Below are positions 1 to 20,503 of a DNA stretch of 64,000 bases, one piece after another. The stretch lies in NCBI RefSeq assembly GCF_058153355.1, contig NZ_CM177019.1; one strand, given 5' to 3'. A program made the position numbers and the translations under genes. Position 1 is the first letter of the stretch, and each line of letters begins with the position of its first letter. The notes under the pieces are model-generated. The model was given only the letters and a program-made list of their open reading frames with translations. It did not search any database and had not been told where the DNA came from.

Positions 1-373
1 GGCTGGGTAAAGCCATCTTTCAGAAGTTTAAAAATCAGCTCATCCGGCTGAACTGCCGCAGAACGGCCCATCTCCTGAAAAATCGGCGCATAAATACCCA
101 GATTGTCATCCTCGAAGTCATCACGGGAAATACCCACGGTGCCTTCAAACGTTTTATTGGCGATAGAGTAGCCATGCGCTTCCATTTGCTGAATGGTTCG
201 CTTACCCACCCATTCTTTCAGGGTCGGGAATTTACCCAGCCAGCCATAGGTATTACTGCGGGTGGAAGAGTTCACCACCATTGCAATTTTGCTGTACTGC
301 GACGGGGCGTCTTCAAGACCGCCCTGAAAATCCTTACGCCAGGAGGTCATCAGGGCTTTAATGGATGCCGGGG
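1..373 (-). CDS. T: Mu major head subunit T (gp34), N-terminal part only; gene runs off the window edge
   Basis: Reverse-strand translation from ATG at 373 gives MIVTPASIKALMTSWRKDFQGGLEDAPSQYSKIAMVVNSS...; lies directly downstream of I as in Mu. Confidence 0.8.
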
Positions 374-379
374 TGACAA

Positions 380-1465
380 TCATTTTTCTTGTTCCTGTTT
401 CATTTTCAGATACTCAGCCTCAGTAATGCCGAGCGCCTTCACTGCTGCCTGTTCATCAGCAGACAGCACCGCCACTGCCGGTTTTTCCTGTGACAGGTTT
501 TGTACCGTTGTGGTCTGCATGGCAGATAACGCAGCGATGGGCTGTTTTTTCTCAAGCTGTGCCGACAGTGCCGCCACGCCAATCTGACCGCCAAGCTGTT
601 CCAGATAGGTACGTTCGCTTTTGAAAATGCGGCCTTCCTGTTCCGCCTTGTCCAGAACGGCGCTCAGGCTGGCTGTGGCGCTTTGTGCAGTCGCCTGTGC
701 CAGTTCATCACGCAGGGCGTTGTAGCTTTCCACCGGGACGTATTTCGTCAGGTCAACGGCGGCGTTCTGTGCCTTTTCCAGTTCGGCGGATAACGACGCC
801 ACTTTCCCGGCATTACTTTCCAGCGTGTCCAGTGCGGTCAGTGCCGCTGTTGCCTGTTCATCGGTGATGTCTGCATTTTCGGGGACAGTCACCCCAAGAC
901 GCGCAAGCAGCTTGCGCAGCGTTTCATTCATGGGTTTGTTCTCCTGTTGAAGGATGTCGGGAAGGTCTGCCGCCAGTGCGGTCAGCTTTTTCATGCCGGT
1001 GGCACCGGGGTCATTGGTCAGCGCAGCAAGGCGGATTTGCAGCACCGCACCGGTGGCGGTGTCATACGGAAAAACCGCAGAGAGATAACCAAATTCGCCG
1101 TCATCGATGCGCTGCTGGGCCGCCGCCGTCCAGCGTGGGTGGATAAATAACCCTTCACCTTCACGCCACTGCATTTCATCGGCGTTAAACCAGCCAGCCG
1201 CGACGAGTTGTTCCGGGGGTAATCCTTTGTCCTTACGTAGCTGGTTATGCTCGTAATCAATCAGCACGTCCTGGTTGAGCGCGCGAACGCCTTCAACCAG
1301 ACGCCCGGCAATCTCACCGTCGATGAACCACCCCTGACCGTCTGTCACATCAAACGGACGACCATCACGGGCACTGAAATGACCGGCAGGCAATAGCTGG
1401 CACCAGCCGTCATCGTCAATGGACAGCGCACTCAGTGCGGCAATGCCAATCGCGTGTTTTTTCAT
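380..1465 (-). CDS. I: Mu protease/scaffold protein I (gp32; scaffold Z nested in the C-terminal part)
   Basis: ORF track 361 aa, MKKHAIGIAALSALSIDDDGWCQLLPAGHF...; position between G and T. Confidence 0.9.
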   Translation of the reverse strand: MKKHAIGIAALSALSIDDDGWCQLLPAGHFSARDGRPFDVTDGQGWFIDGEIAGRLVEGVRALNQDVLIDYEHNQLRKDKGLPPEQLVAAGWFNADEMQWREGEGLFIHPRWTAAAQQRIDDGEFGYLSAVFPYDTATGAVLQIRLAALTNDPGATGMKKLTALAADLPDILQQENKPMNETLRKLLARLGVTVPENADITDEQATAALTALDTLESNAGKVASLSAELEKAQNAAVDLTKYVPVESYNALRDELAQATAQSATASLSAVLDKAEQEGRIFKSERTYLEQLGGQIGVAALSAQLEKKQPIAALSAMQTTTVQNLSQEKPAVAVLSADEQAAVKALGITEAEYLKMKQEQEK

Positions 1466-1661
1466 GTCCTGCTGCTCATCATGGTTTGTGAGCAGTCAGT
1501 TTGCGGGTGGTGCGGGAAAATCTGGGGTTATGCTATTTGAGTAATGGAGAAAGAAAGTGGAAGGAAGATAAAACGGGATTCATACACCGTTAAATACCGG
1601 TTTAAAAATCCCCTGGCGCGTTTTAAAAAATCTGTGCGGCTGATTTCATGTCTGATTCAGT
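1466..1661 (-). promoter_or_regulatory. Mu G-I intergenic region; expected site of the centre-of-genome strong gyrase site and the C-dependent late promoter P_I
   Basis: 196-bp non-coding gap about 17.8-18.0 kb from the Mu left end; assignment from established Mu biology, exact motifs not mapped. Confidence 0.4.
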
Positions 1662-2132
1662 TTATTGCCTCAGAGCGGCGCTGACGCGTTTTCTGATGGC
1701 ATCAAAAATTTCCTGTTCCCCGGTCTTATCCAGCCCCATATAAGGACGCGCAGGAACGCCTGCCGGGCGGGGTGCCATATCGGGTGTACCTCCCCACTGA
1801 TGAATGGCAGCATAAATTTTTGGCGAACCAATCAGGGCATAATCCTGTCCATAATCGGTGGTAATGCTGCGTGCCAGATCGCCATGCAGGGTAAGGATAC
1901 TGCCCGGAACAAAACCATGATCCTGACGCCATGCCTGCCACGAATCGCTCCACGCTTCCCAGCCTTTCCCTGTATCCGGGTCTGCCTGCCGTTCAAATGC
2001 CTGTTCCGTGGATGACAGCAGCGCCGCAGCCATCACACGGGGAATGGCGCGGTCACGTGTAACGGTTCCCAGTTCATCCAGTGCAAGCTGAATACGTCGC
2101 ACATCCACGGCAACGTTCATATCAAGACTCAC
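1662..2132 (-). CDS. G: Mu G protein (gp31), virion morphogenesis
   Basis: ORF track 156 aa, MSLDMNVAVDVRRIQLALDELG...; synteny F-G-I. Confidence 0.85.
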   Translation of the reverse strand: MSLDMNVAVDVRRIQLALDELGTVTRDRAIPRVMAAALLSSTEQAFERQADPDTGKGWEAWSDSWQAWRQDHGFVPGSILTLHGDLARSITTDYGQDYALIGSPKIYAAIHQWGGTPDMAPRPAGVPARPYMGLDKTGEQEIFDAIRKRVSAALRQ

Positions 2133-3448
2133 TTATTCACCTCCACATGCCCCTCCAGTACGTCAATCATCCCGTCAGCAATCGCGGTTTCAAGCGACTG
2201 TGCAGATACGCGGCTGATACTGACCAGCACATCCGCACGGTCATTCTGCCTGCCGACTGTCTGTGATGTTCTGACCACAATCCGGGCCATGCCGTCACGG
2301 GTTGCCACAACATACAGCAACTGGTGGTTCTCCCTGTCCCACAATACTGCCTGTGGTTTTGCCATCAGCGACGGCAGATGCTGTAAATCCTCCGGTTTCA
2401 GGGCGGCATCAGCAGTGGTCGCCAGACTTTTCCCGTTCATCACAAGCAGACGGGCTGGCATATTCCCGGTGCGCTGATGTACGGCTTCAGCTACCGATTC
2501 CGTCATAAAACCCAGTGCCCGGATTTCATGACCGGTCTGACGTGATCCTGCCAGGCGTTTAAGCCAGAGGGAAAAAGCAAGCTGACGCTCCCGGCTGTTA
2601 TTCAGCGTCTGAACAACCTGCTCACGCAACTGCGCGTCGCGAATTTCCACCAGTTTTCGAATCAGTGCCTGATCCGTACCAAATGCCGCCGAACCGGGGT
2701 TATATGACCAGCCCACATCCGGCGTCATTTTTACCCGACCGTTGTCAAACGTGGTTGACGATGTGCGGAAAATCTCTCCGGTGCTTTCATCCGTACCGGC
2801 ATCCACTTCGCGGGTATTCATGAATGACGCACCATAACTGACCTGTAGCCCCAGTTCTTTCATGCGGGCCGCAGACAGCGCCCGGACGCGACAGCGGCAG
2901 TTCCAGCCATTGGGCGGGTAATGCGTCTGCCAGAAAATGTCGTCATACCGGAAAACCATATTGTGCAGCCGCGCATGTTCCGGGCGTGTTCTGCCATCCA
3001 TAACGGCAACGTACTGCCAGTACGGGTACAAATCGGCGGTATTCATCATCTGCGCATAACGTCCTGCCCCATACGCCGTACGGGTATTGACGTTATAAAT
3101 GGTTGCCAGACGACGCGGACTGCCCAGCTCGATTACCTTCGCGTTTCCGTCTGCATCCACGATGATTTGTTTTCCCCACCATCCGAGTTTTTGCAGCCGG
3201 GGGGCCAGTGTGCGGGTAAATTCCTCACGGGTGATGCCTTCACTGACAGCCCGCTCCACTTCCTCACGGATTGTGGTCAGGACATCCATCCGGGTGGCTT
3301 TGGCAACGGTAAAGGCGCGGGCGTGCGCGTCTGCCAGTTGTTCGTACCAGTTCCAGGTGATGTTGTAGCCTTTGGCGCGGAAATACGCGACAGCCTCCTT
3401 TGGCGGGAGGCGTGCGGCATACGCCAGATCAATGGTCTGCTGCGGCAT
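2129..3448 (-). CDS. F: Mu F protein (gp30), head morphogenesis
   Basis: ORF track 2129..3484 begins at a GTG; the ATG at 3448 (MPQQTIDLAY...) has a GGGGG Shine-Dalgarno 7 nt upstream, so the shorter start is preferred. Confidence 0.8.
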   Translation of the reverse strand: MPQQTIDLAYAARLPPKEAVAYFRAKGYNITWNWYEQLADAHARAFTVAKATRMDVLTTIREEVERAVSEGITREEFTRTLAPRLQKLGWWGKQIIVDADGNAKVIELGSPRRLATIYNVNTRTAYGAGRYAQMMNTADLYPYWQYVAVMDGRTRPEHARLHNMVFRYDDIFWQTHYPPNGWNCRCRVRALSAARMKELGLQVSYGASFMNTREVDAGTDESTGEIFRTSSTTFDNGRVKMTPDVGWSYNPGSAAFGTDQALIRKLVEIRDAQLREQVVQTLNNSRERQLAFSLWLKRLAGSRQTGHEIRALGFMTESVAEAVHQRTGNMPARLLVMNGKSLATTADAALKPEDLQHLPSLMAKPQAVLWDRENHQLLYVVATRDGMARIVVRTSQTVGRQNDRADVLVSISRVSAQSLETAIADGMIDVLEGHVEVNK

Positions 3449-4967
3449 CCAGACGCCCCCATATATCGGCAACAAAAATGGCACGGGTCAGCATGTCGAT
3501 AAGTTCTGCATCATCCATCTGCGGATATAATGAAGCAGCTTTGTTCATGGCGGCTTCCGGGCCATCTTTCAGCACAGAAAAAATGACGGGTTTCAGCAGG
3601 GGATCAACCGAACGCTGCCAGTCTTCCGGTGAGACGCCCATCCGGTCGATATCATCCTCCTGCGGGATATCTTCAGCGGATAATGCGGCCTCTTTCTGCG
3701 GACCGTTATCCGGGACAACCGGTTGAGCAGTAAACACGGCTTCATCACCGACCGGCTGTGGAATATGAAGTTTTTCCTGTATCCAGGAGACCGGAATACG
3801 CATTCCCGCCGCCAGTTTCGGAATGGCGTCAGACAGTGCCGTAATATCACCCGCTTCACTGGTATCAAACACAATGCCCGGCAGGCGGTTAATATCAATG
3901 GTGCTGTCACTGTTCAGTGCCAGCAGGGGATAAATCAGGTCACGGTTAATACTGCGGGCAAGCTGGCCCACATCCGCGTTACGGATTTCCCGGCGAACCT
4001 CATCATGCACTTCACCCAGCGACCGTGCACCTTTATCGCCAGCCTCTGTGGTCAGGGTGCCGCCCAGAATGGCTTTTGAAATCGCTTTTTCTGCCCAGCC
4101 AATCATCGCCATAAAGGGGTCTGACTGACCATCTGCGGCGCTCTGAAAATCCAGCGTCATCCCCATCGGAATAATGCCGCCGGCACGTCGCCCGATATCC
4201 ATCACGGCCTGCATCAGCGTGGCTTTCTCGCGGTTCGTTGAGCCGGTCGGATATTTACCGACGCGCATGGGGAGTCCGTAAATTTCCAGAAACTCTGCAA
4301 AATCACGCACGGAATAGTTTTTAAAAATAAAAGGCCAGATAAGCGTGCGCACAAGGCCATTGGTGCCGACATACCCGGTGCGGGATTTGGCCCGGTGCAT
4401 AAACCAGCCGAACGGTTGCAGCTCCAGCCCGTGATAAGACGCATCACGCAGGCGTAATTCGTTCAGATTGTCGGGGTTCGCACAGAACAGCGCCGGATCG
4501 CGATGATGCAGCGCCACCGGCACGCGCATTTTGCCCAGCCAGCCCCATTCAATCTCCTGCATGGAATAACCCTTGAGAATGGCATCACCGGCATCAAACA
4601 GGGCATCTTCAAACCACGCCGCATCATGCAGATATTCATTCAGCATGTCGGCGTCTTTTTTCTCCTGTGCGCTGGCATCACGTGCCGGAGCGATGCGCCA
4701 TTCCAGCGCCTGAATGGCAAGGCGGCGCTTGCTCAGTTCGGAAAAAAGGTGGGTGTCCTTTTCTTCCATATCAAAGGCCAGGTCAGCCTGTGCGGTCAGA
4801 TCACCGCGTTCGGCATCACGCAGCATCTGCGCGGCCCGGTTCGGCGTCACACCACTGGAAGGATGCTCCTGCGTACGCTTCATGACCATTGCCAGCTCAT
4901 CGCTGCGGGTCTGCATTTCATCGTCAAAATCAAACGGCTGCCCGGAAATATCCAGAATACGGCCCAT
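3429..4967 (-). CDS. H: Mu portal protein H (gp29)
   Basis: ORF track 512 aa, MGRILDISGQPFDFDDEMQTRSDELAMV...; between terminase and F. Confidence 0.9.
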   Translation of the reverse strand: MGRILDISGQPFDFDDEMQTRSDELAMVMKRTQEHPSSGVTPNRAAQMLRDAERGDLTAQADLAFDMEEKDTHLFSELSKRRLAIQALEWRIAPARDASAQEKKDADMLNEYLHDAAWFEDALFDAGDAILKGYSMQEIEWGWLGKMRVPVALHHRDPALFCANPDNLNELRLRDASYHGLELQPFGWFMHRAKSRTGYVGTNGLVRTLIWPFIFKNYSVRDFAEFLEIYGLPMRVGKYPTGSTNREKATLMQAVMDIGRRAGGIIPMGMTLDFQSAADGQSDPFMAMIGWAEKAISKAILGGTLTTEAGDKGARSLGEVHDEVRREIRNADVGQLARSINRDLIYPLLALNSDSTIDINRLPGIVFDTSEAGDITALSDAIPKLAAGMRIPVSWIQEKLHIPQPVGDEAVFTAQPVVPDNGPQKEAALSAEDIPQEDDIDRMGVSPEDWQRSVDPLLKPVIFSVLKDGPEAAMNKAASLYPQMDDAELIDMLTRAIFVADIWGRLDAAADH

Positions 4968-6622
4968 TACCAGCCCCCTCGTTCAAACTGGTGATAATCA
5001 TCAAAATCATCGTTATCAACATCATCACCACGGTGGCGTGGTGGCAGCGCCTGTATGCTGTCCTCGTCGATAACAAAACCATTCATATAAGACGCTCTGA
5101 CAGCCATACAGAGCGCCACGGCAAAGTCGCCATGTCGTCGGCCTTTACCACCTTCATCTTTTGTGCGCCCCTTATCAATCTGCGGAATACCTTTGTCCAC
5201 CTTGATGTGGAGCAGGTCATCAAGAGTGGTCTGGTGCCGGGCAATCGTGATGTTCTGCGCTTCAAACTCGCCTTTCAGTTTTGGCATCCACTCCTGATAC
5301 CAGGATGCGGTCAGATTCACACAGTCGATCATCTCCGGGCCATAAATCAGACGGGCGGCTTCTGCCAGATAACCGCCGTTACCGGTGGCATCAAATGCAG
5401 CGCCGGTAAAACGGGGCAAACGGGACAGAATGAATAAAAGGATTTGTCGCTGCTGGTCATAGGTCACATTACGCAGCTCCACGCGGAAACATTCGCGTTT
5501 GCGTAAGTCAGGAGTGATGGCAAGCGGAACAAACACCGTCAGGTCGCCACGGCGTGCAAAGTCTTCGCCCAGTACGTGTTTATTGAGCGGCGACAGCGCA
5601 TCGAGCAACGGGAGCAGCTCCTGTTCACACCAGTCCTGAACGATGCCGTGGCGCATTTGTGGTGTCAGCGATTCAAAATCGTCCGGGGCTTCAAAACGCA
5701 GAATCGGGATATCCCGCGCTGGCGTCATGGCGGCTTCAATCAGCACGCGTGACAGATAAGCGCCCCCGGATTTTTTAGGAATGCAGCCGTATTCCTCGTC
5801 GGCACTCTCTTTATTCGGCGCATTCCGGTACAGGCCATCACGCCAGGCTTTTTCCGCTTCCGGCGACCACGGCTGATTCGTGACGTAACAGATACGTCGG
5901 TACAACCCGTCAGCGATGGCATCATCCAGCGTGATGCGGTGAACGCTGTAATCCTTGCGCCCCTCGCGCGCATCCTGAATGTACTGGTTAAACAGGTTAT
6001 CGACGCCGTTATGTGTCGATATGATCCGCACGCGGGCACCCCACATGGTGAGAGCAAAGGCCGCTTTCAGGAGTTCGTCCAGGGCTTCATGAAATGCCGC
6101 CTCATCAATCACCACGTCCCCCTGCAAACCACGCAGGTTAGACGGACGGCTTGACAGCGCCTGCACCTTAAATCCGCTGTTAGGGAAACGGATCATATAA
6201 GTGAGGATTTCTTCTTTTTTGTCGCTGTCCCAGAAGGTCTGCTCCCAGACATCAGCCTTTGCCAGCTGGTTAAAGGCGCGGGCAAACAGGGCACAGGCGG
6301 CGATATATTCCAGCGCCATTTCCTGACGGGAACCCACATAAAAGACGTTGCGACCGCCACGGCGGCGCGGCTTTGCTGCCGTCATGACATTGCGGCCCGC
6401 TTCGGCCCATGTCAGACCGGTACGACGGGATTTTTCAGCGATGCAAATCTGGCTTTCATCCTCAAACCAGCGGCGCTGATAGCCCAGAAAAACCGGTTCA
6501 TTGCGGGGCTGTGCTTCCCCGATATCGGTCACGATATTCACGCCGAGCAGTTCGGCTTCCTCACGCAGGTTGATTTTTCGGGGGGCATGAAGGGCTTTAA
6601 GGTTGTTTTCTCTGGTGTTCAT
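4967..6622 (-). CDS. Mu large terminase subunit (gp28)
   Basis: Track ORF is 615 aa, but an internal ATG at 6622 (MNTRENNLKALHAP...) sits just downstream of the gp27 stop, giving 552 aa; position upstream of portal. Confidence 0.85.
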   Translation of the reverse strand: MNTRENNLKALHAPRKINLREEAELLGVNIVTDIGEAQPRNEPVFLGYQRRWFEDESQICIAEKSRRTGLTWAEAGRNVMTAAKPRRRGGRNVFYVGSRQEMALEYIAACALFARAFNQLAKADVWEQTFWDSDKKEEILTYMIRFPNSGFKVQALSSRPSNLRGLQGDVVIDEAAFHEALDELLKAAFALTMWGARVRIISTHNGVDNLFNQYIQDAREGRKDYSVHRITLDDAIADGLYRRICYVTNQPWSPEAEKAWRDGLYRNAPNKESADEEYGCIPKKSGGAYLSRVLIEAAMTPARDIPILRFEAPDDFESLTPQMRHGIVQDWCEQELLPLLDALSPLNKHVLGEDFARRGDLTVFVPLAITPDLRKRECFRVELRNVTYDQQRQILLFILSRLPRFTGAAFDATGNGGYLAEAARLIYGPEMIDCVNLTASWYQEWMPKLKGEFEAQNITIARHQTTLDDLLHIKVDKGIPQIDKGRTKDEGGKGRRHGDFAVALCMAVRASYMNGFVIDEDSIQALPPRHRGDDVDNDDFDDYHQFERGGW

Positions 6623-6629
6623 AACCCTC

Positions 6630-7220
6630 TCATGCCTTACCCAGCAGCACATCACGGATACGCTGCTCCAGCTCTTCGCTGATGCCATCCTGCCCGCGCA
6701 GTTCTTCACTGACGGCGTTTGCCGCTTCTTCTGCGAATGCCTGGCGGATTTCTTTCTCGCGCCGGTGGCTGGACATTGCCGTGGATTCCAGACGCTGTGC
6801 CGCCAGCATGGCATTTTTCAGCAGGTCAATATCCACGTCAGATTCCGGGTTTTCGATTTGCCGCATCATGGCCTTAAAAAGCTGGCTGCGGGCCATTTCC
6901 AGAATCAGCTTTGTGGTTTCTCCCATTGGCTTGTCGCCAAGTTCTGCGGTCAGTGCTGACGTCATTTCACGCATCTGTCGCAGGTTATGGCCTACCTGCT
7001 CGACGTTCGTCGCGTAACGATTCAGACCGGAACGGGAGAGTTTCATCTCATCCGGCAGGCCAGCGTCTTCAATCAGTGCGTTAATTTCTTCCAGAATGCG
7101 GGCCTGTGGGATCGCCTTATCACGCAGCATTTCATGCAGCGTTTTACGTACGTTTTCCGGCAGTAAATCCACTTTTGAAGCCCGGCCCCGTGTTTTCCTG
7201 TCCATCACGCCTCCTGTCAT
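6630..7220 (-). CDS. Mu gp27, DNA-binding small terminase-like protein
   Basis: ORF track 196 aa, charged helical protein immediately upstream of the large terminase gene. Confidence 0.7.
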   Translation of the reverse strand: MTGGVMDRKTRGRASKVDLLPENVRKTLHEMLRDKAIPQARILEEINALIEDAGLPDEMKLSRSGLNRYATNVEQVGHNLRQMREMTSALTAELGDKPMGETTKLILEMARSQLFKAMMRQIENPESDVDIDLLKNAMLAAQRLESTAMSSHRREKEIRQAFAEEAANAVSEELRGQDGISEELEQRIRDVLLGKA

Positions 7221-7507
7221 GCACGGGGACGCGGACGCTTGACACCGGCAACGCGGGCGCGGCCTTCCGCCACATCCTGACCTCGGGAGGTCAGCGTTAC
7301 GACATAAAAGCCGCGCAGGTTTTCCACGGTGACCAGTTGCTGCTCTGCCAGCCAGTCAATCTGGCCGCGAACCACATCGCGGGAAACGTTGTGTCCGTAT
7401 GCATCCAGACAGTCCTGAAGGATGGATTCGTTGGCTTCGTTATTGCAGTCCATCAGGGAACGCAGGATGACCAGACGACGGTCTTCAGTCAGAATATCGT
7501 TAATCAT
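7217..7507 (-). CDS. Mu gp26-position hypothetical protein
   Basis: ORF track 96 aa; start overlaps the upstream gene stop (ATGA). Confidence 0.6.
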   Translation of the reverse strand: MINDILTEDRRLVILRSLMDCNNEANESILQDCLDAYGHNVSRDVVRGQIDWLAEQQLVTVENLRGFYVVTLTSRGQDVAEGRARVAGVKRPRPRA

Positions 7508-7821
7508 GAATTACTCCGGTTTACTGCGTTTTCAAGCAGCAGCTCCAGTTGATGGGAAAATGACTGCACCCGCTGGGACAGCACCCGGATATCGCCGGAC
7601 AGCTCTGCAATACGCAGGCGCATTTCGTGTACATCTTCTGTGCCGGGGATGCTGGCGTAGCGGGTTTCCATTTCGGTCATCCGGTTTTCAAGACGCTCCA
7701 CACGCTCAGTGCTGGCAAAACTACGACGCATTGCCCAGACGGCCCCACCGGCCACAACAGGCAACAGGTAAGGCCATAACGCTAAAACTGAAATCAAATC
7801 CATTATTCTGCTCCACGGCAC
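7504..7821 (-). CDS. Mu gp25-position membrane protein (releasin or holin-like lysis accessory)
   Basis: ORF track 105 aa with N-terminal hydrophobic segment LISVLALWPYLLPVVAGGAVWAM, then a charged coiled region. Confidence 0.6.
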   Translation of the reverse strand: MPWSRIMDLISVLALWPYLLPVVAGGAVWAMRRSFASTERVERLENRMTEMETRYASIPGTEDVHEMRLRIAELSGDIRVLSQRVQSFSHQLELLLENAVNRSNS

Positions 7822-7997
7822 CAGTGGCAGTAGTTCGCCATCGGCTGCTGTCTCAGCACATCAGGCCGCAGCTCACGACCGCAACCGGCACACAATACAG
7901 GCGGGTCATACGCCGCCGGGCGGGGAATATCACGGGTATCCCCCTGCCAGAGTTCAGCGAGCAGCAGCGCCACCGCCCGGTTCTGGTCTTCGTTCAT
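7803..7997 (-). CDS. Mu gp24-position small zinc-ribbon protein
   Basis: ORF track 64 aa with CAGC...CHWC cysteine pairs. Confidence 0.5.
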   Translation of the reverse strand: MNEDQNRAVALLLAELWQGDTRDIPRPAAYDPPVLCAGCGRELRPDVLRQQPMANYCHWCRGAE

Positions 7998-8295
7998 AAA
8001 TTTCTTTCCTTCGGGTCTCCTGTTCCCGGACTGATGCCTTGTCGCGGTTGCACTGCCCGAGCGCCATCAACAGGTCAGCATTCCAGAGAAGGGATGCTCC
8101 CCACGTCAGGGGCTGTGGCATGGGCGGAACGGGCGTTGCTTCCGTCAGTTCTGCATCAGTTTCGGGCAGGATCACCACCGATGGCACGGGTGCGTTTTTC
8201 GAGTTCCCGCAACCTGTCAGCAGCAACGGCAGGCACAGGACGAGTGCTGCAATTGTCACCGGTAATGGCGGTTGTAATTTTTTGTTTTGCATCAT
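7954..8295 (-). CDS. Mu o-spanin outer-membrane lipoprotein (gp23.1), partly overlapping the i-spanin gene in another frame
   Basis: Inside track ORF 7954..8430: MMQNKKLQPPLPVTIAALVLCLPLLLTGC has a signal peptide plus LTGC lipobox, followed by a proline-rich mature region. Confidence 0.65.
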   Translation of the reverse strand: MMQNKKLQPPLPVTIAALVLCLPLLLTGCGNSKNAPVPSVVILPETDAELTEATPVPPMPQPLTWGASLLWNADLLMALGQCNRDKASVREQETRRKEIYERRPEPGGGAAAR

Positions 8296-8542
8296 GATGT
8301 TCTGTCTCATCTTCCAGCCGCGCGGCACGATTTGCGGCACGGATAGCGGAAAATACCTGCATCGTCTGTTCCTGACTGTGTAACAACCATTCAGCAGTGT
8401 GGCGGGCCTGTTGCTCCGTCTGTAATTCACGGCGCAGCGTCTGGTTATCGTGGCGGGTGCTGTCCAGCCTGTGCCACAACACCCCGGACAGAACGGCGGT
8501 AAACACGGCTGCCAGCAGTAAACTTTTACTGGCGAAGGTCAT
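8156..8542 (-). CDS. Mu i-spanin (gp23)
   Basis: ORF track 128 aa with N-terminal TM helix (LLLAAVFTAVLSGVLW) and a charged coiled-coil; immediately downstream of the endolysin. Confidence 0.7.
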   Translation of the reverse strand: MTFASKSLLLAAVFTAVLSGVLWHRLDSTRHDNQTLRRELQTEQQARHTAEWLLHSQEQTMQVFSAIRAANRAARLEDETEHHDAKQKITTAITGDNCSTRPVPAVAADRLRELEKRTRAIGGDPARN

Positions 8543-9044
8543 CCGCCCCCCTGATATTCCAGATTGCCATTTCCACTTCGCGACGGTTCATCAGTCCTTT
8601 CCATTTATGGCCTGCGGCAAACACCCAGCGGGCCATCTGGTCACGTGCTCCGGCGTAATCACCGGCATTGAGTTTTTTCAGCAGCGTTGATTTACTGAAT
8701 GCGGTAACACCGGTGTTGAAAATAAACGTTGCCAGCGCCGTTTTCTGATATGGCGTCAGCGGCACCCTGACAAGACGATCGATTGCCGCATAAACCGGTT
8801 TTAAATCACTGTCGAGGAGAGCCATACACTCCGCATGGCTGTAACGGCGCATTTCAATATCCGGCCCGGTATGTCCCACACAGACCGTAAGCACACCGGC
8901 AATATCGCGGTAAGGCAGATAAGCGATATTTTCCAGATGGATCAGAGACTGACGGGTCATTTCCTGATAACCACCCACACCGCCACCGGCAATTGTTACA
9001 GCCAGCAGTGCGGCTTTCAGTTTTTTTGGGATCTCCGCCATCAT
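8526..9044 (-). CDS. lys: Mu endolysin Lys (gp22), SAR-type lysozyme
   Basis: ORF track 172 aa, MMAEIPKKLKAALLAVTIAGGGVGGYQEM..., N-terminal signal-anchor-release helix followed by a lysozyme domain. Confidence 0.9.
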   Translation of the reverse strand: MMAEIPKKLKAALLAVTIAGGGVGGYQEMTRQSLIHLENIAYLPYRDIAGVLTVCVGHTGPDIEMRRYSHAECMALLDSDLKPVYAAIDRLVRVPLTPYQKTALATFIFNTGVTAFSKSTLLKKLNAGDYAGARDQMARWVFAAGHKWKGLMNRREVEMAIWNIRGADDLRQ

Positions 9045-9135
9045 GCTTCCCTGAAAAAATGCGCTGATGGCAGTCTAAAAAATCAGGTGACAGGTGCGGG
9101 ATTATGGTGACAGGAAATAACCGGCAGGATGCCGG
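9045..9135 (-). promoter_or_regulatory. C-lys intergenic region, expected location of C-dependent late promoter Plys
   Basis: 91-bp gap between C stop and lys start; assignment from Mu biology. Confidence 0.4.
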
Positions 9136-9558
9136 TTATTTCTGGCTTTCAGGTGAGAACAGGTCAGGCTGATGACGTCGTGTATGCAGCTTTCTCTGGC
9201 GGGCAATAATCTGGTAGATCTGCGGCTGGGACAGGCGATACTGGCGACGCAGTTCTTCCATGTTACGACCATTGAACTGGCAGTAAAGCAAATCGTCGCG
9301 TAACGCGGTCAGGATCGTATCGCCGCAGGGGATGTAAAACTGCCGCCCGCCCAGAAAACAGGACAGGGCAACGGCCTGTTTACGGGCAAGCTCACGGGGA
9401 TTGCTGACGTTCTGGCGTTTCAGTTCGTTTTCCAGAACATCAATCAGATCAACCACCGAACGGGGCCAGCGTGATTCCAGTTCCGGGGCCGGGATGTTAT
9501 CAATATGTCCGATTAACTGGCGAATTGCCGGATCGTGTTCAAATAAATCATGCTGCAT
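9136..9558 (-). CDS. C: Mu late transcription activator C
   Basis: ORF track 140 aa, MQHDLFEHDPAIRQLIGHIDNIPAPELESRWPR...; shares its C-terminal fold with Mor (..FNGRN..EL..Y). Confidence 0.9.
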   Translation of the reverse strand: MQHDLFEHDPAIRQLIGHIDNIPAPELESRWPRSVVDLIDVLENELKRQNVSNPRELARKQAVALSCFLGGRQFYIPCGDTILTALRDDLLYCQFNGRNMEELRRQYRLSQPQIYQIIARQRKLHTRRHQPDLFSPESQK

Positions 9559-9670
9559 ATTTTCCCCCGGTTAACAGACAGAAAGATACACCACGGCACT
9601 GATGGTTATCAGAACCACAAGGGCAATCACTTTTATCGCACTCATCAGCGTGGACGGACCGAAACATTCA

Positions 9671-9901
9671 TCACTGAATTTTCTGTACACAATATTTTTC
9701 CTTATAACGTTGGCAGTGGTGAAGAATTTCCGGCATATCAACCGACTGCCAGCCTTTCATGTAATAACTTCCGTGGGTGCCATCATGACCGGTATAGTCG
9801 CGGGGCGAAGGCCGTGGCCCACCGGCGACACGGTGTAAAACCTCCTGACGCAGCCGCTCACGTCTGCCAAGATGAAAGGATGCATTCCAGCCTTTACCCA
9901 T
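9671..9901 (-). CDS. Hypothetical small protein in the mor-C interval (uncertain coding)
   Basis: ORF track 76 aa; region should also hold the middle promoter Pm; overlaps a plus-strand ORF. Confidence 0.3.
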   Translation of the reverse strand: MGKGWNASFHLGRRERLRQEVLHRVAGGPRPSPRDYTGHDGTHGSYYMKGWQSVDMPEILHHCQRYKEKYCVQKIQ

Positions 9902-9978
9902 GATGATTTCCCCCGGTACGGTTATTCATCACAGGATATTGAGGACGTAAAAAAAGCCGGATTAACCGGCTTTACTGT

Positions 9979-10368
9979 TTACAGTAGTGAGGGCTGGTAC
10001 TGGCGGTATTTCAGCCGTCGCATCCGGCGAATGGCCTTGTAAACCGTATTGAAAGTGACACCATAACGGGTGGTCAGTTCGCTGACGTTGCGACCGTTAA
10101 AATCATTCCAGATACGCAAATCCCGAATCAGCGAGTCCAGAACCTGACCGCGTGGAATGTAGACCTGACCGCCGCCCAGATGCTTACAGATAGCCACAAC
10201 AATCTCCAGTGAATGGGCAGGATCAACACCCAGCCGGGACAATTCCCCGCGCAGTAAATCGTTCAGCTCCGCCAGCAGTGCCGGAAAGCGTGACGTATCC
10301 TCGGCGGGATTGTCAAGATGTGCCAGGATGGTGTCATCCTGCAAATCACCAAATAAATCTTCCGTCAT
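9979..10368 (-). CDS. mor: Mu middle operon regulator Mor
   Basis: ORF track 129 aa, MTEDLFGDLQDDTILAHLDNPAEDTSRF... Confidence 0.9.
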   Translation of the reverse strand: MTEDLFGDLQDDTILAHLDNPAEDTSRFPALLAELNDLLRGELSRLGVDPAHSLEIVVAICKHLGGGQVYIPRGQVLDSLIRDLRIWNDFNGRNVSELTTRYGVTFNTVYKAIRRMRRLKYRQYQPSLL

Positions 10369-10916
10369 TGTGCCATCCTCCGTGTCTTTCTGGCATGGGC
10401 ATAAGCCGCCGTCATGGCATCATAGCCGCGCAGTTCACGCCCGGACGGACTGACCGGCAACGGAAGCTCGTGACGGGAAAAGGCTTCACGAATACAGCGG
10501 ATGTGCCACTGCTTGAGTGTTTCGAGGACTGTCAGCAGCGTGTCGCCATGACACCACGCCAGTGTGGAAACGCCCTGTCCGCCGTTGCGTTTCGCGGTCA
10601 GGCGCTGAACATATTTATCCAGCGCCACATCACCGCCATCGGTAATAAAACCGTCTTCTGCCATCTGCTGCCAGACTTTGTATACCTTCTCGCGGGGCGT
10701 GACATGCCCCTTAAAGCGGCGACGTGGATGTTTATTCTGCTTCTTAAAGCCGCGTTCTTTCATGGCATCAATCACCTGTTCCAGTTGCGTAACCGTCAGC
10801 TCGCGGCAACTGATTTTGCCCGTTTTCTGCATCAGAAAGGCGCGGTAAGTATCGTCGCCGAGTTGTAGCTCCCGACGGGCGACATGGATTAATTTAATCA
10901 GGGATGTGCGATTCAT
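10365..10916 (-). CDS. gemA: Mu GemA
   Basis: ORF track 183 aa, MNRTSLIKLIHVARRELQLGDDTYRAFL...; immediately upstream of mor with ATGA overlap. Confidence 0.8.
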   Translation of the reverse strand: MNRTSLIKLIHVARRELQLGDDTYRAFLMQKTGKISCRELTVTQLEQVIDAMKERGFKKQNKHPRRRFKGHVTPREKVYKVWQQMAEDGFITDGGDVALDKYVQRLTAKRNGGQGVSTLAWCHGDTLLTVLETLKQWHIRCIREAFSRHELPLPVSPSGRELRGYDAMTAAYAHARKTRRMAQ

Positions 10917-10985
10917 GATCGTACCTCCGGAAAGAGGCGGTGCTGCAACACCGCCTGAATTTACACATCAATCAGAGAGGATTTT

Positions 10986-11252
10986 ATGGAAAATAATGTA
11001 CAACCTTATGATGTTGCAGGTTATGCGATTGCATCAGCACTGGTGCGCCTTCTGGTGAAGAAGGCGATCATCACCGCAGAAGAGGGCCAAGCCATTTTCA
11101 GCTCTTCAGCAGAGATTTTAAAAGATGCGCCTGCAATAAGAACAAGCCGCCGCGAAAACATGCAACTGTCAAAGATCATGGAAGACATTATCAGTTCGTT
11201 AGACCCAGATGCTGACGGATCTCAAAAGCCTCAAACACATGAGCGTCAGTAA
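10986..11252 (+). CDS. Plus-strand hypothetical protein inside the Mu early operon, antisense to the early transcript
   Basis: ORF track 88 aa; ATG preceded by GAGAGG Shine-Dalgarno 7 nt upstream; 3' end overlaps the convergent ORF 11191..11493 by 62 nt. Confidence 0.35.
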   Translation: MENNVQPYDVAGYAIASALVRLLVKKAIITAEEGQAIFSSSAEILKDAPAIRTSRRENMQLSKIMEDIISSLDPDADGSQKPQTHERQ

Positions 11253-11493
11253 CAATATCCTGGTCTGATAACCCCAGCCTGCGGCGGATGTACTCCTCGC
11301 GGGCTGTTTCATTTTGCAGTGCCACTACTGTTTCCAGACGATTCATTTCGCGGTTGATAATGTCACGGACTTCTCTGGCGGTGAGATTATGCTTAATACC
11401 ATATTCAACGATAGCGCGAACACGTTCCAGCATCCCTTTTTCAGCCATGACGTTATCAATATTAAGGGGAGTAAATTTATCTTCATTGTTCAT
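11191..11493 (-). CDS. Mu semi-essential region hypothetical protein
   Basis: ORF track 100 aa; ATGA overlap with the upstream ORF. Confidence 0.5.
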   Translation of the reverse strand: MNNEDKFTPLNIDNVMAEKGMLERVRAIVEYGIKHNLTAREVRDIINREMNRLETVVALQNETAREEYIRRRLGLSDQDIVTDAHVFEAFEIRQHLGLTN

Positions 11494-11813
11494 TTTGCGG
11501 CCCTCAGAATAAATTCAGGATAAAATTTCAGACTCATTTGCCGTAACACATCCAGTGCAGCAACGGCTGCTGATTTATCGTTGCCATCAGCAATAGCGCG
11601 GAGATTTTCAATAATCCAGTGAGGACTCAGTGACTCAGCAACAATACCGAGTCGGTACGCCATGACCTCATCAATTGCACGGTTATAAGACGGGGCGTAT
11701 ACCGCCGCCACAAAGTTACCGATCACATCTTCAGGAAAACCCGCCGCCGTCAACAACGCTGTCAGTTCCTCGGATTTTGTAAATACGCCATTATTCATTC
11801 TGTTCACCTTCAC
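11490..11813 (-). CDS. Mu semi-essential region hypothetical protein
   Basis: ORF track 107 aa. Confidence 0.55.
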   Translation of the reverse strand: MKVNRMNNGVFTKSEELTALLTAAGFPEDVIGNFVAAVYAPSYNRAIDEVMAYRLGIVAESLSPHWIIENLRAIADGNDKSAAVAALDVLRQMSLKFYPEFILRAAK

Positions 11814-11982
11814 AATTCATGCACGCCGTGTCATCGCCCATATCGCAGTGGTTGCATTTCTGCCCGCCACAATGGGGACACTCTTTCAGATATTCAGGGG
11901 ATTCATTACCGCAGGTCGGGCATTCCTGTTTCACCGTGGTGAATTTCCCCAGCCACGAATACGATGTTTCATTGTTTTCCAT
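11791..11982 (-). CDS. Mu semi-essential region small zinc-ribbon protein
   Basis: Track ORF 11791..12054; internal start MENNETSYSW at 11982 has a GGAGG Shine-Dalgarno; CPTCG...CPHCGGQKCNHC...CMNC cysteine clusters. Confidence 0.5.
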   Translation of the reverse strand: MENNETSYSWLGKFTTVKQECPTCGNESPEYLKECPHCGGQKCNHCDMGDDTACMNCEGEQNE

Positions 11983-12520
11983 TGTTTGCCTCCGCCTGCT
12001 CCAGTGCCATAACTGGTGCGTCAGAACAGTCAAGAATGAGATAGCGCAGTACATGGTCGGTGATATTCCATGCGCTTGAGCTGCAAATAAAACGCCCCAG
12101 CCGGATATCGATATAAGCCATCACAAAACGGGGCATTCCCTGTTTGCACATCTCGTCATCCACTTCTGCAACGATGTGAACGGATTCACAGGTCAGTACG
12201 CCTGTCGCAAACTCTTTTGCCAGCGCGGGGATAGTATTACCTTCCACCCAGGGTAATGAGCGACGCCAGTTGCACCACACCGCATCATCAACGGCAGGCT
12301 GCTCAGTTGCGTTTCGTCTTACAGGCGGCGTCGGACGCGGGCGCGGAACGTCATAAAATCCGTTGCATTCGGTGAGCACTCCGGCATCAACCGCATCCCG
12401 CAGGAAATACACCATTGACGAGGGCAGCATCTTCATTTTTTCAGCCAGAACCCCGCAGGTCAGACGCCCGTAAGCCAGTAATAATGTGCTGACCCCATTC
12501 AGAACTTTTGCATCAATCAC
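11969..12520 (-). CDS. Mu semi-essential region hypothetical protein
   Basis: ORF track 183 aa. Confidence 0.55.
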   Translation of the reverse strand: MIDAKVLNGVSTLLLAYGRLTCGVLAEKMKMLPSSMVYFLRDAVDAGVLTECNGFYDVPRPRPTPPVRRNATEQPAVDDAVWCNWRRSLPWVEGNTIPALAKEFATGVLTCESVHIVAEVDDEMCKQGMPRFVMAYIDIRLGRFICSSSAWNITDHVLRYLILDCSDAPVMALEQAEANNGKQ

Positions 12521-12523
12521 CGG

Positions 12524-13078
12524 TTATTCCTCCGTCAGTGCCACAAATTCAGAATGTTTAATACGCTGGCATTCGGAGGGAACTGGTCCTTTAACCTCAC
12601 CGTCCAGAAGGCGCACCTCAAACAAAATGCCGAATCCATCACGGGTGTGGTGCATCTCCCAGAGCGATTTGAAATCCCACATATTGGGTATGACATCAAC
12701 CCCAAGTTCATTGCACAGCCAGCCCGGAAAATCCGGGTATTTACCGAGCTGATTTTCATAGCCCCGGATAAGCTCCGCGTGTTCCCGGCCTGCTGGTGTT
12801 GTCATATCCGGCATCGCTGCCCATAACTGAATATCACCAATAAAAAGTGTCCTTGATTTAATCTCCCATCCTTCCGGTGGTAAACGGTTAAACCAGACAC
12901 GCGTAACCCTCTCAGGCCCTTTGTCACCAGACAAAAACACACCGCTTGCTTTCACTGATTGCTGTAATGACGCAATAATCTCACCACGCTTAACAGAAAC
13001 CTCTTTCAGCCAGCGAATCGTATAACCGTTAGCGGCTGCGTCACTCAGTTTAAAATAAGCACATGCTTTCATTTTCAT
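12524..13078 (-). CDS. Mu semi-essential region hypothetical protein
   Basis: ORF track 184 aa. Confidence 0.55.
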   Translation of the reverse strand: MKMKACAYFKLSDAAANGYTIRWLKEVSVKRGEIIASLQQSVKASGVFLSGDKGPERVTRVWFNRLPPEGWEIKSRTLFIGDIQLWAAMPDMTTPAGREHAELIRGYENQLGKYPDFPGWLCNELGVDVIPNMWDFKSLWEMHHTRDGFGILFEVRLLDGEVKGPVPSECQRIKHSEFVALTEE

Positions 13079-13169
13079 TCTCTCCGGTTCTGATTAAGGC
13101 GCGAGTCGTCCCCTGACGCATCGCGCCATAATTAAACGAATGTGAATTAATTAAATATTAATGGTGGTA

Positions 13170-13694
13170 TTAAATACCGGCTTCCTGTTCAAACGGAATA
13201 ATGGAAAAATCTTCAATTCCCGATTTAACTGTAATTCCGGCAACACCTGCGACCGCTTTCGGTTCCAGTAAAATCGCTTCCTTGTTGATTTCCTGCTTCG
13301 TGCGAATAAAGCGTTGCAGGCCAAGACGCTCCAGCGTTTCCATCACTGCATCCATACCACGAATACTTACTGATGGTGGACGGACCCGCCACGATACATC
13401 ACCGGTGACAAGATTTGCCGTTTTCACTTTGCCGCCGTTTGTCAGTTCGTCGCGGTTCGCTTCACACCATCCCTGAACGCCTTTTGAAAGGGTTTCAATA
13501 TCGGTTTTAATCGGTGCAATCCGGGCTGCAAATTTCTCCGTAATTTCCGCGATGGCATCATTCATTTCCGTTTCCAGACGTGATGCTTCGCGCTGTAAGT
13601 CCCCGATGCGTTTAATATCGGTAATCACCGCATCGCGGTTTTGTGGCACATAAGCCGCTGCGGCACTTTTGATACGTTTTGCTGGTTTAGCCAT
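13170..13694 (-). CDS. gam: Mu Gam, DNA-end-binding host nuclease inhibitor (Ku-like)
   Basis: ORF track 174 aa, MAKPAKRIKSAAAAYVPQNRDAVITDIKRIGDLQREASRLETEMNDAIAEI... Confidence 0.9.
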   Translation of the reverse strand: MAKPAKRIKSAAAAYVPQNRDAVITDIKRIGDLQREASRLETEMNDAIAEITEKFAARIAPIKTDIETLSKGVQGWCEANRDELTNGGKVKTANLVTGDVSWRVRPPSVSIRGMDAVMETLERLGLQRFIRTKQEINKEAILLEPKAVAGVAGITVKSGIEDFSIIPFEQEAGI

Positions 13695-13713
13695 AAATTA
13701 AAGCTCCTGTTAA

Positions 13714-14013
13714 TTAATATCCGCTGTATACAATGCTGGATACAGCTCGATTGCTTAATTCCATCTTTCGGGCAATGACATGAATATCCAGCCCTTCTTT
13801 ATAAAGTTCACGACATAAATATTTGTCGTGTTCACTGATTCGGTATACACACAATGATATTCCGTGCCTTCTGGCATGTGCCCGGAGGGCGGTTGTGGCG
13901 ACTTTCAGTTTTTCCGCCATTTCTTCAACGGTCATTTTCCCGACGTTGGCTTCGATAAATTCCCGGTCTTCGCGTGACCAGCGCTTACGATTACACTTCA
14001 TGTCAGCCACCAT
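13714..14013 (-). CDS. Mu early region hypothetical protein with a putative helix-turn-helix
   Basis: ORF track 99 aa; segment MTVEEMAEKLKVATTALRAHARRHGISL resembles an HTH. Confidence 0.55.
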   Translation of the reverse strand: MVADMKCNRKRWSREDREFIEANVGKMTVEEMAEKLKVATTALRAHARRHGISLCVYRISEHDKYLCRELYKEGLDIHVIARKMELSNRAVSSIVYSGY

Positions 14014-14433
14014 TCAGTACAGCAGAGGCTCGCGCAGTGATGCCGGAATATGCCGCAGCGATAACTGAACCGCTTTCAGGGCAAGCGAGGAATAACAGCA
14101 GCGCGCCCGGCCTTTTGCCATTAACCGGTAATCGCGCCAGATACGCTGCCACATTTCACGGGCTTCAGGGTCTGATGCGCAGATGTATTCCCGGTCCATG
14201 ACGTACTCCCATAAATCCACGTTGAACGCACCGCCAAATGCAATGGCGCGGGATATGCTTTCGCCGCAATAACGCGCACAGATGCTGTAATGGTCGAAAG
14301 CAATCAGGTAAGTCTTTTCACCACAATCATCAACTTTCCGGGCGTAAATAAATCCGCGTAATTCACCACCGTTGTTATTGCGTCCCTGAATTCGGATTAA
14401 TGCCTGAATTTCATTTCGGATTTTGACGTTCAT
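14014..14433 (-). CDS. Mu early region hypothetical protein
   Basis: ORF track 139 aa. Confidence 0.55.
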   Translation of the reverse strand: MNVKIRNEIQALIRIQGRNNNGGELRGFIYARKVDDCGEKTYLIAFDHYSICARYCGESISRAIAFGGAFNVDLWEYVMDREYICASDPEAREMWQRIWRDYRLMAKGRARCCYSSLALKAVQLSLRHIPASLREPLLY

Positions 14434-14453
14434 TGTCAGCGCTCCTTTGCGAA

Positions 14454-14723
14454 TTAATGTTTAACCGCATTCACCGGATGTGGTACTAAATCACATTCAG
14501 CCTCCATACCCACTTTCTTCATAGTGGTCAGCATCTCATCTTTGGCCTTTTTAATAATTTCAGGAGCCATAGTCAGGACGATATTTGCCAGTAAATCATG
14601 AGGCCCGGTATTTTCCGTTGGCGAGATATCTGCAAGACATGCTTTTGCATCCAGAACTTCTCTGCGCCCATTGCAACCTTCACAACTTTCCAGCCATGTA
14701 AACTCAAAGATAACTTTTGCCAT
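14454..14723 (-). CDS. Mu early region hypothetical protein
   Basis: ORF track 89 aa, cysteine-containing (CEGCNGRRE). Confidence 0.5.
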   Translation of the reverse strand: MAKVIFEFTWLESCEGCNGRREVLDAKACLADISPTENTGPHDLLANIVLTMAPEIIKKAKDEMLTTMKKVGMEAECDLVPHPVNAVKH

Positions 14724-14734
14724 TTTGTTTCCCC

Positions 14735-14989
14735 TTATTGATTCTGAATAACTGCGCTGGCTTTTACCTTCGCGCCTTTTACCTGCTTAAAGAAAACCGC
14801 GCTGCACCACGGACAACATGCAAAGGAGTCCCATACTTCATTTTCTGGTGAGCATTGCGTCATAATTTGCTCTTTGCACTTGGGGCAATTAAATGCAGTC
14901 AGAGCCACATTGTTATTCTGTACCCGTTTAACCCATTCAATATATTTTCCAGCTTTAGTACACATCGTTATCTCCAGATAATCTGGCAA
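14735..14989 (-). CDS. Mu early region small zinc-finger-like protein
   Basis: ORF track 84 aa with CPKC and CCPWC motifs. Confidence 0.5.
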
Positions 14990-15195
14990 CCATTAAGACG
15001 GGCCGTCCATACAGAACGGGCCACCCCGGACTTATGCTCCATAATTCTGACCGCGTTTTTTACCAGTTCCACCGGTGGGTAAGTGATTTCAAGAATCGGA
15101 CGCGCCACGCCGAGATATGATTCATTTACATGACTCCCGCGCGCCTGTAACCAGTTCTGCGCATCCGTTGCCATTTTTATATTTCGGGCCATCAT
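14968..15195 (-). CDS. kil: Mu Kil-position protein (first gene after B)
   Basis: ORF track 75 aa immediately downstream of B; assignment by position and size. Confidence 0.5.
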
Positions 15196-15210
15196 AATTT
15201 CTTCTCCTTC

Positions 15211-16149
15211 TTAATTACGCAGCAGCGTTAAAATATCAACGTCCAGGTCTAATTCACGGAAAGCCTGACGCAGATAATCTTCGTTAACACGCTCACCTTT
15301 ACCATGAGCCGTCATGGCGGCAAGGCGAAGCGAATGATTCAGAATGCGAAGCGCACCGGGTTTCTGTGCAATTTGCTGTAACAACTCCAGTTCTTTTTCG
15401 CCGTTAATATGCCAGGCATCCGCAATAGCTTTTACATCGGCTTTTTTGGTTTTATTAATTGCAGTGGGCTTTGCAATACGGGAAAACAGACGGGCAAATT
15501 CAACCGTTCTGTTGCCCCCCGTCATATTTGAATAAACGCGGTGATTGCCCATCAGCACAAGGCCAGTGCGGGTTGATTCCTGTAACAGGCGGAGTTCTTC
15601 CAGAGCTTCAGCACCAAGATGATCAGCTTCGTCGATGATAACCAGCCCCTGTGTACCTTCAAGGCGGCGTCGCAGGGCGCGGGAGAGCGGCCCTTTACGG
15701 CGTGGTGCGTCATTCATTCCCAGCTCAAACGCCAGTTCAGTAAGACATTCCAGAACGCTGGCACAGGATGGCGTAATGGTGATCATCCAGACATTGTTAT
15801 TGGTGCGGCGATATTCACGGGCCGCTTCGGTTTTGCCCACACCAGGATTGCCACATACAACAGCAATACTTTCAGTCAGGCTGGCAAAACGCATACTTGT
15901 CCAGATTTGTTTTACCGTCTGCGTTTCCACAAAGCGGGGCGGTTCCGGTAGTTCTGCGACTGCATGATATTTTTCCAACCAGCGTTGCAGTATTTGTGCA
16001 ACACGTTCGTTATCCCCGTTGTACTTATCATTGATAAAACTACTGATAGTCCCGGTAGAAAGTCCGCTCTCAAGGGCAATTTGTTTAAAGGTGGTTTCTT
16101 CATTTTCTACAAGGGTGCGCAGTCCTGCGCGAATATCTGAAATATTCAT
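15211..16149 (-). CDS. B: Mu transposition ATPase / target DNA activator MuB
   Basis: ORF track 312 aa, MNISDIRAGLRTLVENEETTFKQIALESGLS..., Walker A GNPGVGKTE. Confidence 0.95.
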   Translation of the reverse strand: MNISDIRAGLRTLVENEETTFKQIALESGLSTGTISSFINDKYNGDNERVAQILQRWLEKYHAVAELPEPPRFVETQTVKQIWTSMRFASLTESIAVVCGNPGVGKTEAAREYRRTNNNVWMITITPSCASVLECLTELAFELGMNDAPRRKGPLSRALRRRLEGTQGLVIIDEADHLGAEALEELRLLQESTRTGLVLMGNHRVYSNMTGGNRTVEFARLFSRIAKPTAINKTKKADVKAIADAWHINGEKELELLQQIAQKPGALRILNHSLRLAAMTAHGKGERVNEDYLRQAFRELDLDVDILTLLRN

Positions 16150-16187
16150 CTGAATAACCTCGTAATTAAATTTTGTTAAAACGTTAA

Positions 16188-18179: not shown

Positions 18180-18180
18180 G

Positions 18181-18408
18181 TTATTCACCTGCTTGATATC
18201 GGCTAGGCCAGATTACTTCCGGTTTAGTTTCTAAGGCGTTAGCAATAATCTGCTCACCCTTTGGCCAGTGTCGTTCTAGCGCATTAGCTAATGTAGTTGG
18301 CGCATAACCGAACTGCCGGGAAAGAGCTGATAAAGAGAGCTTTCTTTTCTTAAGTCCCGCAATCACATCCGCTCGATGCCAATCACGGGCCTTTTCGTTG
18401 GAACACAT
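18181..18408 (-). CDS. ner: Mu Ner, early-transcription negative regulator
   Basis: ORF track 75 aa, [36 protein letters not shown]... Confidence 0.9.
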
Positions 18409-18577
18409 TTAAAAACCCTCCTAAGTTTTGTAATCTATAAAGTTAGCAATTTAACTAAGTGTAAAAACTTAGCTAGCTTGCTAAAAAGATAATTACTGAA
18501 AAGCTTTTTGTAAAGTTACTTTTTAGTAAATTTCTTTGATTACTGATTAATGCATTGATAAATAAGGGGTTTAAATT
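18409..18577. promoter_or_regulatory. Mu early operator/promoter region (O1-O3, divergent Pe and Pc, Ner and IHF sites, transposition enhancer)
   Basis: AT-rich divergent intergenic region between c and ner with repeated CTTTT/AAGT-type repressor half-sites. Confidence 0.7.
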
Positions 18578-19168: not shown

Positions 19169-19319
19169 CAACCATGAACCAGCTAAAACATACTTCACCT
19201 CACATAATCACACATGTAACATACCTAAACGGCATAAGCTGATTTGTGATATGAGTCATTTGGTGACAGCCTGGTTGTTATCGGTTTTGAACGTTTTTTG
19301 AAGCTGTTATTGAAATGAT

Positions 19320-19506: not shown

Positions 19507-19540
19507 CCGGGTATGTCGTTATTCAATAAAGGTGCCTCGT

Positions 19541-20443: not shown

Positions 20444-20503
20444 TTTTATTAAGAAAAGAACGAGATTATTGTTTAGGGTTGTATTTACACAACAGGAAAT
20501 ATT

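Follow-up and report, generated by a model that had tools for sequence, protein, structure and literature searches.

The G–I intergenic gap of a Mu-type prophage as a homologue of the Mu strong gyrase site region

The locus considered here is the non-coding gap between the virion genes G and I of a Mu-type prophage, and it raises the question of what a phage keeps in 196 bp that encode none of its known proteins. In particular, does the gap hold the strong gyrase site (SGS) for which phage Mu is known? No natural gyrase site stronger than the Mu SGS is known; it explains the end pairing of a 37-kb transposon, and it serves as a standard substrate for single-molecule and cryo-EM work on gyrase; reportedly, the relevant Mu studies are those of Pato, Howe and Higgins from 1990 and of Oram et al. 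from 2006. From comparison with Mu and its relatives of the window (the whole stretch of 64,000 nucleotides that was analysed), the gap is understood as the G–I region of a Mu-type prophage that would comprise the SGS, a hairpin followed by a U-run and a late promoter, P_I, dependent on the activator C. We assign this reading a probability of roughly 0.93. The presence of an SGS in the G–I gap is already known, indeed of textbook standing, and there is nothing new in kind about it.

The prophage and its G–I gap

The left 19.5 kb of the prophage, read on the minus strand, corresponds to window 1..19506 and shows 97.5% identity to Mu 1-19520. The sequence at its left end matches the canonical Mu end exactly (Table 1). 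A tblastn comparison with Mu covers the whole length of the products of repressor c, ner, A, B, Mor, C, lys, E, H, F, G and I, with amino acid identities of 97-100%, and the homologue of the activator gene C (window 9139-9558) is likewise full length and 98.6% identical to Mu C. The window contains the left half of a Mu-type prophage, intact by appearance, with the right half lying beyond window position 1. Relatives have lengths of 36.7-37.2 kb, and Yersinia-phage records reach up to 39.5 kb. As regards spacing, the twelve prophage genes checked are conserved and lie, in total, 14 bp nearer the left end than in Mu. In a megablast search, Mu covered just 84% of a 22-kb query, in 6 pieces; from this coverage, some parts of the left half must have diverged from Mu or been replaced.

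On the host side, the junction is found at 19506-19507, and the flank analysed (19507-23400) reveals that the Mu left end adjoins the 67-bp intergenic region between yihS and yihR, the insertion point being 34 bp upstream of yihR in the sulfoquinovose catabolism cluster. Compared with 5,426 complete E. coli genomes, a set to which the window itself does not belong, the flank has a best identity of 98.3%, with most of the genomes at 90-95%. Given identities no higher than these, the host may represent a divergent Escherichia lineage.

An earlier note on this DNA had described the gap as 196 bp of non-coding sequence situated about 17.8-18.0 kb from the left end, and both statements hold. The list of open reading frames returns exactly 1466-1661 as the interval between the two genes; on the Mu strand this interval has zero ORFs of at least 20 aa with an ATG, GTG or TTG start, a search of Rfam with the gap gave no match, and the measured distance from window 19506 is 17,846-18,041 bp. 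The flanking genes are assigned with ease. The gene I protein matches Pfam Mu-like_Pro (E 5e-98) and is 97.2% identical to Mu I over its full length by tblastn, and the gene G protein matches Pfam Phage_tail_S (virion morphogenesis; E 2e-42) and is 99.4% identical to Mu G, again over the full length. The gap stands out from its flanks by composition, with a G+C content of 39-48% vs 54-60%.

Throughout the G–I region the alignment to Mu proceeds without indels, and positions are converted as Mu position = 19521 - window position. The 'gyrase cut site' is annotated at 17879^17880 in each of the two GenBank records of Mu, and the record AF083977 also annotates a TransTermHP terminator (17908-17953), a late promoter (17977-18043) and a ribosome-binding site (18044-18046), all of them within the gap. 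The alignment to canonical Mu that the earlier note had asked for was thus run, and the cut site at 17879^17880 falls into the gap, that is, into Mu 17860-18055.

Table 1. Coordinates of the features of the G–I region and of the prophage left end in the window
Feature	Window position	Strand	Mu equivalent, basis or remark
Gene I, head maturation protease/scaffold, 361 aa	380..1465	minus	ORF list, Pfam, tblastn
G–I intergenic gap, 196 bp	1466..1661	minus	G stop to I ATG; Mu 17860-18055, 189/196 identical
RBS (GAG) of gene I	1475..1477	minus	Mu annotation
Late promoter P_I	1478..1544	minus	Mu 17977-18043, annotated 'late promoter, PMID 2522923'
-10 hexamer CAAACT of P_I	1498-1503	minus	aligned with other late promoters
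C-box right half ATAACCCC (plus strand GGGGTTAT)	1524-1531	minus	ATAA plus CCCC; intact
Equivalent of D108 '31.5', 42 aa, ATC start	1527-1655	minus	GenBank CDS of D108
Equivalent of Mu_3F6 hypothetical protein, 46 aa, antisense	1544-1684	plus	GenBank CDS of Mu_3F6
Hairpin then UUUUAU (putative terminator)	1568..1613	minus	homologous to TransTermHP-predicted Mu terminator 17908-17953
Strong gyrase site, 150 bp (-65..+85)	1559..1708	minus	Mu 17813-17962, 145/150 identical; boundaries PMC6463007
SGS right arm (+26..+85)	1559..1618	minus	phased A/T tracts; private C>G at 1613 (+31)
SGS gate/core (-25..+25)	1619..1668	minus	right half as in Mu; left half with 3 substitutions; 1662-1668 overlap end of G
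Cleavage stagger AATC, 4 bp	1642..1645	minus	Mu 17876-17879; GenBank cut 17879^17880 = window 1642/1641
SGS left arm (-65..-26)	1669..1708	minus	within 3' end of G; identical to Mu
Gene G, virion morphogenesis / Neck1, 156 aa	1662..2132	minus	ORF list, Pfam, tblastn
Mu left end TGTATTGATTCAC (canonical TGTATTGATTCACTTGAAG)	starts at 19506	minus	exact match

Anatomy, register and natural variation of the gyrase site

The 150-bp SGS of Mu is composed of a left arm (-65 to -26), which is dispensable, a gate or core (-25 to +25) and a right arm (+26 to +85) whose first 40 nt, equivalent to window 1579-1618, are essential (PMC6463007). Projected onto the prophage, the site is cut ~17-20 bp from the G stop and reaches 47 bp into the G coding sequence. 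The proposal of the earlier note that the gap holds the SGS is hence right for the parts reported to matter, namely the cut itself, the greater part of the core and the right arm; G takes in the left arm along with 7 bp of the core. The distance of the cut-site homologue from the left end is 17.86 kb here vs 17.88 kb in Mu.

The register of cleavage was derived from six bases that have been named individually for the SGS, namely A at +3, G at +7 and C at +8 of the top strand together with T at -3, G at -7 and C at -8 of the bottom strand (PMC6463007). All six fit Mu only with the cleavage centre between Mu 17877 and 17878, from which it follows that the stagger is AATC at Mu 17876-17879, with the GenBank feature at one of its edges. 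In gyrase binding assays, a 133-bp 'Mu SGS' fragment has been used (Sutormin 2019, suppl. table S2), for which that study gives a score of 14.3 with the Topo-Seq matrix; it equals window 1577-1709 (Mu 17812-17944; 128/133 matches), and its alignment to the consensus published with it yields a register in agreement with the AATC stagger. A proxy for the gyrase motif, an unweighted count of positions that agree with the 133-bp consensus of Sutormin 2019 either exactly or by S/W class, gives 79/129 for 17876-17879 vs 55-57/129 for 17880-17883, a difference to be read with the crudeness of the proxy in mind. Right beside the stagger, at window 1640 (Mu 17881), the fragment of Sutormin, which derives from pMP1000, differs by one base (G>C on the Mu strand) from the window and from GenBank Mu. 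The similarly named plasmid pM1000 is said to carry nuB103 (PMC6463007), and the description of nuB1/nuB103 given there does not reconcile with the pMP1000-derived fragment.

Besides position and identity, the arms of the site can be compared by sequence periodicity. Periodicity was measured as the power of A/T vs G/C at 10.0-11.2 bp in sliding 48-bp windows, with the 64-kb window as background. On the side of the right arm, the best 48-bp window (1567-1614) reaches a power of 2.50 and is placed in the top 0.06% of the 64-kb window, a fraction that is somewhat optimistic for being the best of ~26 overlapping starts; the corresponding segment of Mu also has a power of 2.50 (top 0.02% within Mu). 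The left-arm side has a power of just 0.88, at ~12% from the top. A repeat finder identified the pattern CGKTTTAAAAA twice in the right arm, as CGGTTTAAAAA and CGTTTTAAAAA, with a spacing of 21 bp or two helical turns. According to the literature, the right arm harbours phased anisotropic bending signals and is essential, and the left arm is replaceable (PMC10052514, PMC6463007, PMC13284261, PMC11626157). The asymmetry in periodicity between the right and left arm reproduces the published asymmetry, and it does so independently of annotation.

The likeness to the Mu SGS thus includes the same G–I locus, 145 of 150 bases, the same cleavage tetranucleotide and right half of the core (AATC and +1..+25 are unchanged) and the same phased right arm. 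What sets the prophage site apart are five substitutions, at -16, -8, -4, +31 and +84. At Mu 17862/17870/17874 (-16, -8, -4) the window reads T/A/G, a left-core haplotype that it has in common with D108 and Mu_3F6 and that is partly present in Tongde and two viral contigs. One of these changes, at -8, hits the bend dinucleotide singled out in PMC6463007, which counts against a site acting just as in Mu. The left-core changes are shared with viable phages such as D108 and therefore are tolerated by viable phages. Mu_3F6 differs from the window in only 2 of 281 positions; like D108, it reads C at +31 and T at Mu 18013, as opposed to G and A in the window.

The C>G change at +31 (window 1613) is private to the prophage and falls among those 40 right-arm nucleotides that are reported essential. 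The G was absent from 7 phages, 4 viral contigs and 46-47 E. coli prophage copies, and a 45-mer centred on it gave zero matches in the 5,426 complete E. coli genomes, whereas the same 45-mer with C, used as the positive control, was retrieved in 46 exact copies from 39 E. coli genomes. The segment Mu 17909-17960 is invariant across 12/12 compared sequences. Such rarity of the G, together with the 100% conservation of the C-containing 45-mer in the 46 copies and the invariance of the neighbouring segment, could speak for an SGS homologue that is altered in strength or impaired by the +31 change, or for a prophage that has become a decaying remnant. To this explanation we accord only a small probability. 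The change stays in the G/C class, and for that reason the phasing score is unmoved at 2.50 in both alleles; a difference of a single base at +31 could also be a sequencing error; and decay is at odds with all 12 of the left-half genes tested being full length at 97-100% identity. Nothing points to impairment of the site by the +31 change. The SGS homologue with its critical parts intact remains the preferred reading.

Hairpin, late promoter and the coding capacity of the gap

Between the cut and P_I, and wholly inside the right arm of the SGS, the gap specifies a hairpin followed by UUUUAU. By analogy with Mu, where the terminator annotation is a TransTermHP prediction only, the hairpin and U-run probably end the upstream late transcript running from lys to G. 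The hairpin has a predicted folding energy of -16.8 kcal/mol here vs -19.8 kcal/mol in Mu, with z-scores of -1.9 vs -3.2, and the +31 C>G change removes its outer C-G pair. A simple terminator scan of the region returned no terminator, as is expected because the hairpin has an internal loop. If the hairpin terminates, the same bases would act as a gyrase-wrapping signal in the DNA and as a terminator in the RNA. Of the two signals, just the RNA hairpin is weakened by the private C>G at 1613.

The gap also accommodates, as the earlier note had anticipated, the late promoter upstream of I, seeing that the annotated Mu 17977-18043 aligns inside it. Stacking of Plys, P_I, PP and Pmom reveals a common cATAAcCCc box, with the -10 hexamers TAGACT, CAAACT, TATCCT and TAAGAT, respectively, in register. 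P_I resembles the other three promoters in having this box, a weak -10 and no -35 hexamer; it differs from them in the poor left half of its C dyad, which is true of the Mu P_I too. The dyad in the prophage has its right half intact and its left half imperfect exactly as in Mu. The C protein binds a 16-bp dyad that is imperfect, has its centre at -43.5 and follows the consensus TTAT-N5-6-ATAA (PMC2582627, PMC12867686), and at P_I the protein promotes the productive open complex (PMC4461284). A promoter scan found no sigma-70 consensus promoter in the region, an expected outcome because the promoter is activator-dependent.

P_I has two substitutions relative to Mu, both outside the C-box and the -10: G>T at 1544, on the upstream edge, and T>A at 1508, in the spacer 5 bp upstream of the -10. 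The latter is private: none of 47 E. coli prophage copies has it, nor do the 7 phages or the 4 viral contigs. Two further observations concern the promoter and the leader. A 10-bp sequence, TCCCGCACCT, occurs both in P_I (window 1508-1517) and in Mu Plys (L009 10420-10429), with a 10-bp offset relative to the -10 (PMC4461284), and the private T>A at 1508 alters its last base. The predicted leader of gene I contains a perfect 7-bp inverted repeat, CTGCTCA/TGAGCAG (1472-1478 + 1489-1495), with a 10-nt loop, one arm of which covers the annotated GAG of the RBS. The inverted repeat at 1472-1495 may have arisen by chance, or it may block access to the RBS once transcribed into mRNA.

A different kind of reading would have the gap encode a small protein, as called in D108 (31.5) or in Mu_3F6 (46 aa). 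Both CDS calls exist in GenBank records, and no stop codon interrupts the 46-aa frame in the window. Nevertheless, we hold this reading to be very improbable. The D108 frame relies on an ATC start and has no ATG, GTG or TTG start in the window; the antisense ORF needs a T at Mu 17977 for its ATG, and the base is a G (giving CTG) in Mu, D108, YpM_3, PhiR68_1 and Tongde; Mu, SfMu and the other relatives whose G–I region was compared carry no annotation of either ORF; and known cis elements account for the whole region. The reading of the gap as a small ORF was rejected since its start codons vary from relative to relative, and judging from these sequences the small CDSs of D108 and Mu_3F6 are probably over-calls.

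That the gap might be transcriptional punctuation only (terminator and P_I), with the gyrase site elsewhere in the prophage, has negligible probability and is ruled out by the alignment to Mu, for the experimentally mapped and annotated Mu cut site aligns inside the gap and the published SGS fragment maps here, and the crude consensus scan that puts other positions higher fails on Mu too, hence is not evidence. The consensus proxy was dropped as an SGS detector, given that the true Mu SGS ranks just 1025 of 73,170 positions in Mu itself. An exact-pattern scan for the SGS core in GTDB species representatives gave 0 matches.

Proposed action of the site and its significance

Because of the 97% identity and the intact critical parts, it is very likely that the SGS homologue of the G–I gap has the same function here as the SGS has in Mu. 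What the sequence itself shows is homology, position, intact motifs and the asymmetry in periodicity; that gyrase binds and cleaves the site, that the site takes part in end synapsis, that P_I depends on C and that transcripts end at the hairpin would follow by analogy with the Mu work. Host DNA gyrase would bind the SGS and cleave it with a 4-bp stagger at 1642-1645, the right arm being wrapped round the C-terminal domain of GyrA by way of its phased A/T-G/C bending signals. According to the published model, gyrase at the SGS would supercoil processively, so extruding the prophage as a plectonemic supercoiled loop that has the SGS at its apex. The loop would bring the left and right ends, ~37 kb apart, together for transpososome assembly and replicative transposition. 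At the level of transcription, the hairpin with its U-run would stop the late transcript from lys to G, and the C protein, bound to the dyad near -43.5, would activate P_I for expression of I and the downstream head genes.

In Mu, the roles of the SGS in replication and end synapsis are documented, deletion of the site delaying replication by ~100 minutes and end cleavage by ~40 minutes, and the optimal position of the SGS is central only (PMC10052514). Before induction, the SGS is needed as well, for the prophage to be held apart as a chromosomal domain of its own (PMC3820752). The strong gyrase sites of the plasmids pSC101 and pBR322 and the 130-bp gyrase motif from Topo-Seq belong to the same class, in that a cleavage core is combined with helically phased G/C-A/T arms. 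The pSC101 and pBR322 sites are, however, unrelated in sequence to the SGS of Mu, and plasmid strong gyrase sites cannot take over its role in promoting the replication of Mu (PMC10052514).

An SGS in another Mu-type prophage makes no conceptual addition. Laboratory nuB mutations near the cleavage site alter the strength or the processivity of gyrase cleavage. One might conceive of the natural SGS alleles (the Mu type, the D108 type with -4/-8/-16, and the +31 C>G of this prophage) as a functional series that tunes cleavage strength or processivity akin to nuB, with the +31 change also weakening termination into P_I; this idea is doubtful and offered as speculation. The value of the locus is modest and consists in its entry to a catalogue of natural variants, to which it contributes a D108-type left-core haplotype combined with one private change in the right arm. 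Natural variants of the SGS represent ready-made alleles for the sequence determinants of gyrase wrapping.
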